A stretch of DNA of 64,000 nucleotides from Escherichia coli (lineage in GTDB: Bacteria; Pseudomonadota; Gammaproteobacteria; Enterobacterales; Enterobacteriaceae): assembly GCF_050920415.1 (NCBI RefSeq), contig NZ_CP169309.1. One strand, written 5' to 3'. The notes under the pieces are model-generated. The model made no database searches. It was given only the letters and a program-made list of their open reading frames with translations, and was not told the origin of the DNA. Below are positions 43,206 to 43,392 of the stretch, piece after piece. A program made the position numbers and the translations under genes. Every line of letters starts with the position of its first letter. The stretch's first letter is position 1.

Positions 43206-43281
43206 TGGAGCGGGAAACGAGACTCGAACTCGCGACCCCGACCTTGGCAAGGTCGTGCTCTACCAACTGAGCTATTCCCGC
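43206..43281 (-). tRNA. glyY: tRNA-Gly (anticodon GCC), copy nearest queG
   Basis: Reverse complement reads GCGGGAATAGCTCAGTTGGTAGAGCACGACCTTGCCAAGGTCGGGGTCGCGAGTTCGAGTCTCGTTTCCCGCTCCA: 76 nt, anticodon GCC, encoded CCA end. Which K-12 copy this corresponds to is ambiguous. Confidence 0.97.
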
Positions 43282-43316
43282 TTGGGTGGTCTGTGCTTTG
43301 CAGCACTTTCAAATTT

Positions 43317-43392
43317 TGGAGCGGGAAACGAGACTCGAACTCGCGACCCCGACCTTGGCAAGGTCGTGCTCTACCAACTGAGCTATTCCCGC
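43317..43392 (-). tRNA. glyV: tRNA-Gly (anticodon GCC), copy nearest orn
   Basis: Identical 76-nt sequence, separated from the other copy by a 35-nt spacer; only two tandem copies are present in the window. Confidence 0.97.

Follow-up and report, generated by a model that had tools for sequence, protein, structure and literature searches.

Why does a genome of Escherichia coli carry two tandem tRNA-Gly(GCC) genes between orn and queG, at the place where K-12 carries the three genes glyV, glyX and glyY, and was a gene lost here, gained in K-12, or dropped by an assembler? We followed this question in a window of 64 kb, meaning the whole stretch of 64,000 nucleotides of contig NZ_CP169309.1 that was analysed, and compared it with near-identical strains and with complete E. 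coli genomes. The reading that we consider probable is that the locus is the glyV-X-Y operon for tRNA-Gly(GCC) in a contracted two-copy form, produced by the loss of one 233-nt unit.

ARAGORN finds two tRNA genes in the 64-kb window and no others, both encoding tRNA-Gly with anticodon GCC on the minus strand. The promoter-proximal gene (43317..43392) is 76 nt long with an encoded CCA end, and the promoter-distal gene (43206..43281) is 100% identical to it by string match; their starts lie 111 nt apart, leaving a spacer of 35 nt. Either copy scores 69.1 bits against the Rfam tRNA family RF00005 (gathering score 29), and the sequence matches that of K-12 BW25113 in 76 of 76 positions, where it is present three times as glyV, glyX and glyY. 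Given this identity to the K-12 genes and promoter, both copies would be expected to be transcribed and to mature into functional tRNA. The spacer (43282..43316, minus strand), which reads AAATTTGAAAGTGCTGCAAAGCACAGACCACCCAA, is predicted to form a small GUGCU/AGCAC hairpin (fold -7.2 kcal/mol, z = -2.25). On either side lie orn (43603-44148, minus strand) and queG (41797-42936, plus strand), with positions transferred from the RefSeq annotation of a genome that is nearly identical to this one. The window as a whole runs opposite to the usual K-12 orientation; on the strand of the tRNAs, orn is followed by the promoter, the two tRNA genes, the terminator, the datA locus and finally queG, which is encoded on the opposite strand. 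The array thus has the position of the glyV-X-Y transcription unit between orn and queG as well as its shared promoter and terminator, with two tandem copies in place of three. A preliminary description had reported two identical 76-nt genes between orn and queG, separated by 35 nt, and had seen neither a third copy nor a remnant of one in the flanking regions. ARAGORN, RF00005 and the mapping of the flanks agree on the first point, and alignment with three-copy genomes bears out the second, in that it contains no third or degenerate tRNA-Gly copy and leaves a clean gap of one unit. The three tandem copies that it gave for K-12 are indeed found between orn and queG of BW25113, with spacers of 36 and 35 nt.

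Upstream of the first tRNA gene, a region that we take as the putative array promoter and leader (43393..43477, minus strand) was read directly from the sequence, its role as PglyV-X-Y being that described for K-12 (PMC10950094). It comprises a -35-like hexamer TTGCAG (43472-43477), a 16-nt spacer and a -10 element TATAAT (43450-43455), followed by a GC-rich discriminator and a 57-nt stretch up to the first tRNA, with an A/T-rich tract upstream of the promoter. A generic promoter scan did not call an array promoter, because the -35 is weak, with 3 of its 6 bases matching. The stretch that begins with the -35-like hexamer and ends at the first tRNA departs from K-12 at one position, a C/T difference 6 nt ahead of the gene. 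Downstream of the array, a terminator- or attenuator-like hairpin followed by UUUUUGUUG (43147..43187, minus strand; RNA fold -14.3 kcal/mol, z = -1.86) is identical to K-12 in alignment and overlaps a first DnaA-box-like site, ATATCCACA, at 43179-43187 (DnaA-box scan), just as TglyV-X-Y overlaps datA DnaA box 1 (PMC10950094).

The preliminary description did not mention datA, which fills the stretch from the last tRNA-Gly gene to queG (42938-43187 of the window). Scanning with the consensus sequences of PMC10950094 places a putative datA core at 42938..43120 on the minus strand, with DnaA boxes TTATCCACA (43112-43120, minus) and TTATTCACA (42950-42958, minus), a further box TCATCCACA (42938-42946, plus) and an IHF site TAACTTATTGATA (43043-43055, minus) that matches its consensus exactly. 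Altogether, four sites downstream of the array match TTATNCACA with no or one mismatch, together with the one exact IHF consensus site. Judged by sequence, both remaining genes, the promoter, leader and terminator as well as datA appear to be intact in the window.

Arrays of three copies (c1 to c3) come in two main types. The K-12 type runs c1, 36 nt, c2, 35 nt, c3, and in the second type the first spacer is 157 nt long, that is, 36 nt plus an insert of 121 nt. The insert is a dispersed repeat, present at a median of 7 places per genome and mostly at 60-80% identity, which probably belongs to the ERIC/IRU family, judged by the ERIC1R and ERIC2 primer sequences. Of the 5,426 complete E. coli genomes, about 1,606 (about 30%) carry it in the first spacer, and so do several of the loci that we compared directly (L002 at 1805-1961, L003, L006-L009, L018 and L022). 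Alignment and spacer comparison find the 121-nt insert absent between the two copies of the window, and the ERIC2 primer sequence has no match in the window.

Two near-identical genomes frame the question. The closest complete genome, MFDS1022581, differs from the window over 64 kb by four SNPs and one 4-nt tandem indel, apart from the array, which has two copies separated by the 157-nt spacer and thus lacks the 35-nt spacer and one copy. That indel is the only one outside the array: at 59188-59191, in the intergenic region of ecnA and efp, the window has a tandem AGTGAGTG and MFDS1022581 a single AGTG. The annotation of MFDS1022581 also reveals an accessory cluster at 1-8150 of the window, upstream of rplI, encoding a sugar-phosphate isomerase, an enoyl-CoA hydratase, a CoA transferase, an FAD oxidoreductase and a TRAP transporter. 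The second genome is a draft (L022, GCA_015518365.1) that agrees with the window at 99.98% identity over 8.5 kb. It was found among the matches listed for the exact Nnr protein, which 23 further contigs also encode. The array of L022 reads c1, 157 nt with the 121-nt ERIC-like repeat, c2, 35 nt, c3, and it has in common with the window a lineage-specific C located 6 nt upstream of the first copy. Three further relatives at about 99% identity (L007, L009 and L018) likewise have three copies in this arrangement, and their 35-nt spacer is that of the window. A separate set of loci (L012-L017, L019 and L021) carries an extra gene for a 246-aa periplasmic-binding protein (PF00497) between array and orn, at about 4993-5733, along with an identical QueG protein and two spacers of 36 nt each; these genomes measure 4.5-4.9 Mb, with L021 being a draft contig of 0.6 Mb. 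Exact matching had marked L019 as a two-copy array, a candidate that we dropped, as its third copy is present with one substitution.

The spacers indicate which unit is missing. The 35-nt spacer of L022, like the second (c2-c3) spacer of three-copy relatives in general, is identical to the only spacer of the window, and since it is this spacer that was kept, the window can be described as lacking one unit of 233 nt. The ancestor of the clone would have carried promoter, c1, the 157-nt spacer (36 nt plus the 121-nt ERIC-like repeat), c2, the 35-nt spacer, c3, terminator and datA. A single deletion between the identical direct repeats c1 and c2 would remove 233 nt, namely one copy and the long spacer, leaving promoter, one copy, the 35-nt spacer, a second copy and the terminator. 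The crossover may have fallen anywhere within the 86 nt that c1 and c2 have in common, consisting of the 76-nt gene and the first 10 nt of the spacer, AAATTTGAAA. In E. coli, deletion between short direct repeats that lie close together is known to proceed through replication slippage or through unequal sister-chromosome exchange, and we infer that one of the two, unequal homologous exchange or slippage, acted here. In MFDS1022581 it would be the other unit, of 111 nt, that was lost. Measured between the stops of queG and orn, the interval is 666 bp long in the window, 788 bp in MFDS1022581, 899 bp in the three-copy allele with the ERIC-like repeat and about 778 bp in K-12. Neither two-copy allele can be derived from the other by one deletion, and one 233-nt deletion from a three-copy ancestor is the simplest history of the window.

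To place these alleles, the copy-number survey across E. coli that had been proposed in the preliminary description was run on 5,426 complete genomes, using short diagnostic queries, megablast, and E-value cut-offs that could be passed only by full-length matches in a single piece. About 19 genomes fall outside the array types of this census, in which 5,267 genomes (97%) have three copies, 3,689 of them without and 1,578 with the insert. Two copies are found in 107 genomes (2%), with the short spacer as in the window in 80 and with the long spacer in 27, and a single copy in 15 (0.3%). Expansions account for 18 genomes: 16 with four copies, one with five copies (UTAK-1), and one with four copies and the insert, the last count being a single full-length match to a query whose cut-off was also passed by three-copy genomes without the ERIC insert. 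Arrays with a copy number other than three make up 2.6% in all. Contraction is thus commoner than expansion, and both recur in unrelated lineages, including O157:H7 Xuzhou21, KO11FL, ST648 and PCN033. Variants are also inherited clonally, with one allele common to eight OkiPb017xx isolates, and the two separate records of strain 2013C-3277 both show two copies.

Several candidates had to be set aside along the way. An earlier coverage-based BLAST survey had labelled many genomes as "tRNA-Gly (x2)", and the three that were inspected each had three copies, the label reflecting the piece reported by BLAST, for which reason that count was dropped. A four-copy match in BL21(DE3) (CP081489) was excluded as an engineered tRNA cluster; this stretch (L023, NZ_CP081489.1, 4491772-4493565) contains two tRNA-Lys, three tRNA-Gly, one tRNA-Ile and one tRNA-Ala gene beside hokE, and has the look of a tRNA array that was engineered or moved, not of the native locus. 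Among the 15 one-copy genomes are O104:H4 2011C-3493 and two laboratory strains of K-12, MC1061 and OV2, both from a single submission series. TUM strains make up 6 of the 15, so that a pipeline effect has to be considered. Among the two-copy genomes, at least 14 of 60 in the matches listed belong to the AVS0xxx wastewater series, and another AVS strain has four copies; this excess reflects either a very large collection or assemblies that are unreliable at the repeat. With such over-represented sequencing series, part of the census may be artefactual.

Three copies are the ancestral state and the change in the window is a loss, because 97% of the 5,426 genomes and L022, a member of the same clone, have three. 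The preliminary description had suggested the loss or gain of one repeat unit by recombination, and the comparison supports this while settling the direction as a loss in the lineage of the window and not a gain in K-12. What changed was one repeat unit, as proposed, though its size is 233 nt including a dispersed repeat, and not the 111-112-nt unit of K-12.

The strongest competitor is an assembly artefact: the true array would have three copies, and the assembler, crossing the 86-nt repeat twice, would have skipped the loop with the long spacer. A repeat collapsed in the source assembly would yield exactly the same sequence, and the two-copy paths of the window and of MFDS1022581 are complementary, their union being exactly the three-copy array of L022. 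Two independent deletions within one clone would be a coincidence that mis-resolution of the repeat could account for instead, and the clustering of variant arrays in the AVS and TUM series is what pipeline effects would lead one to expect. However, all three copies are resolved in L022, a draft belonging to the same clone, and two-copy alleles are found in many unrelated genomes, in groups of clonal isolates (the eight OkiPb017xx isolates among them) and in both records of 2013C-3277. What else differs between the window and MFDS1022581 is moreover limited to clean SNPs and one tandem 4-mer, and looks like real polymorphism and not like homopolymer noise. On balance we regard an artefact as unlikely, though by some way too plausible to be treated as negligible.

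An alternative that starts from a real two-copy allele is that the window descends from an array of the MFDS1022581 type (copy, 36 nt plus ERIC, copy) by precise excision of the 121-nt element, with no tRNA copy lost. The near-identity of the two genomes fits this, and the 157-nt spacer without its insert is 36 nt long and differs from the window spacer by a single A in an A-run. Even so, two events would be required, the excision and a deletion of 1 nt, whereas one deletion from the three-copy allele gives the window spacer exactly, and that allele is present in the clone (L022). We know of no established process for precise excision of an ERIC element, and we consider this route very improbable. 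That two copies are the older state, with K-12 and most E. coli having gained a third by duplication, is less probable still and effectively refuted: expansions do occur (16 four-copy genomes, one five-copy genome and one four-copy genome of the ERIC type), but three copies prevail across lineages at 97% and are present in L022 and in the separate lineage L012-L021.

What would the loss of one 233-nt unit mean for the cell? The expected effect is a lower gene dosage of tRNA-Gly(GCC) and nothing else, because promoter, leader and terminator hardly differ from those of K-12 and the datA sites are intact. If glyW is present outside the window, the genome probably has three tRNA-Gly(GCC) genes instead of four. 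K-12 stays viable when all of glyVXY is deleted (PMC9981150) and the unit is not on the essential list (PMC11480407), and deletions of tRNA genes in K-12 have fitness effects that depend on nutrients (PMC9981150, PMC11480407). Because K-12 lives without all of glyVXY, the loss of one copy should be tolerable, and we infer a mild or neutral effect. The two-copy array is of little import alone, since variation in the number of tandem tRNA genes is expected and all three can be deleted in K-12. Three array alleles occur among genomes only a handful of substitutions apart. One may ask whether glyV-X-Y is a fast-switching locus in this clone, whose contractions could be selected through datA and the timing of replication initiation, beyond the dosage of tRNA-Gly; we think this improbable. 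Read-through from PglyV-X-Y governs the occupancy of IHF at the adjacent datA (PMC10950094), and any effect on datA of a promoter lying 233 nt nearer is unlikely. Natural variants of array length could nevertheless offer ready-made test cases for read-through into datA. The array can also be used to judge how good an assembly is, given that near-identical strains differ here in their assemblies.

Compared with glyV-glyX-glyY of K-12 (tRNA-Gly3, GCC), the window has the same 76-nt gene, the same flanking genes and terminator and spacers of the same family, but two genes versus three, and its sole spacer is of the 35-nt type, differing at two positions from the second spacer of K-12. Closer still is the three-copy array with the ERIC-like repeat, as found in E. 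coli 042, in ST38 strains, in L022 and in all 1,578 complete genomes of this type. This is the same sequence at the level of the lineage, with the 35-nt spacer and the flanks of the window being identical in L022, L007, L009 and L018, and the window differs from it in lacking one tRNA copy and the entire 157-nt spacer including the 121-nt repeat. As in other cases where tandem tRNA genes change in number by unequal recombination or slippage, the window has identical direct repeats and a change by a whole unit, and we regard it as ordinary copy-number variation of a tandem repeat, a known kind of polymorphism in known genes. In Pseudomonas fluorescens SBW25, large-scale tandem duplications that alter tRNA gene copy number are reported to arise spontaneously at a high rate (PMC10954465). 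In E. coli, the number typically varies among strains by one copy more or less, and this array was given as three or four copies in all E. coli (McDonald et al., 2015; PMC4539685), whereas our census also contains arrays of two copies (2%) and of one copy (0.3%); the published statement can now be corrected, as one-, two- and five-copy arrays occur as well among 5,426 genomes. As for datA, which is controlled by PglyV-X-Y read-through (Kasho et al., 2024; PMC10950094), the window likewise has DnaA boxes, an IHF site and a terminator overlapping box 1, and it differs in the distance of the promoter, which lies 233 nt closer than in the three-copy allele of the clone and 112 nt closer than in K-12.
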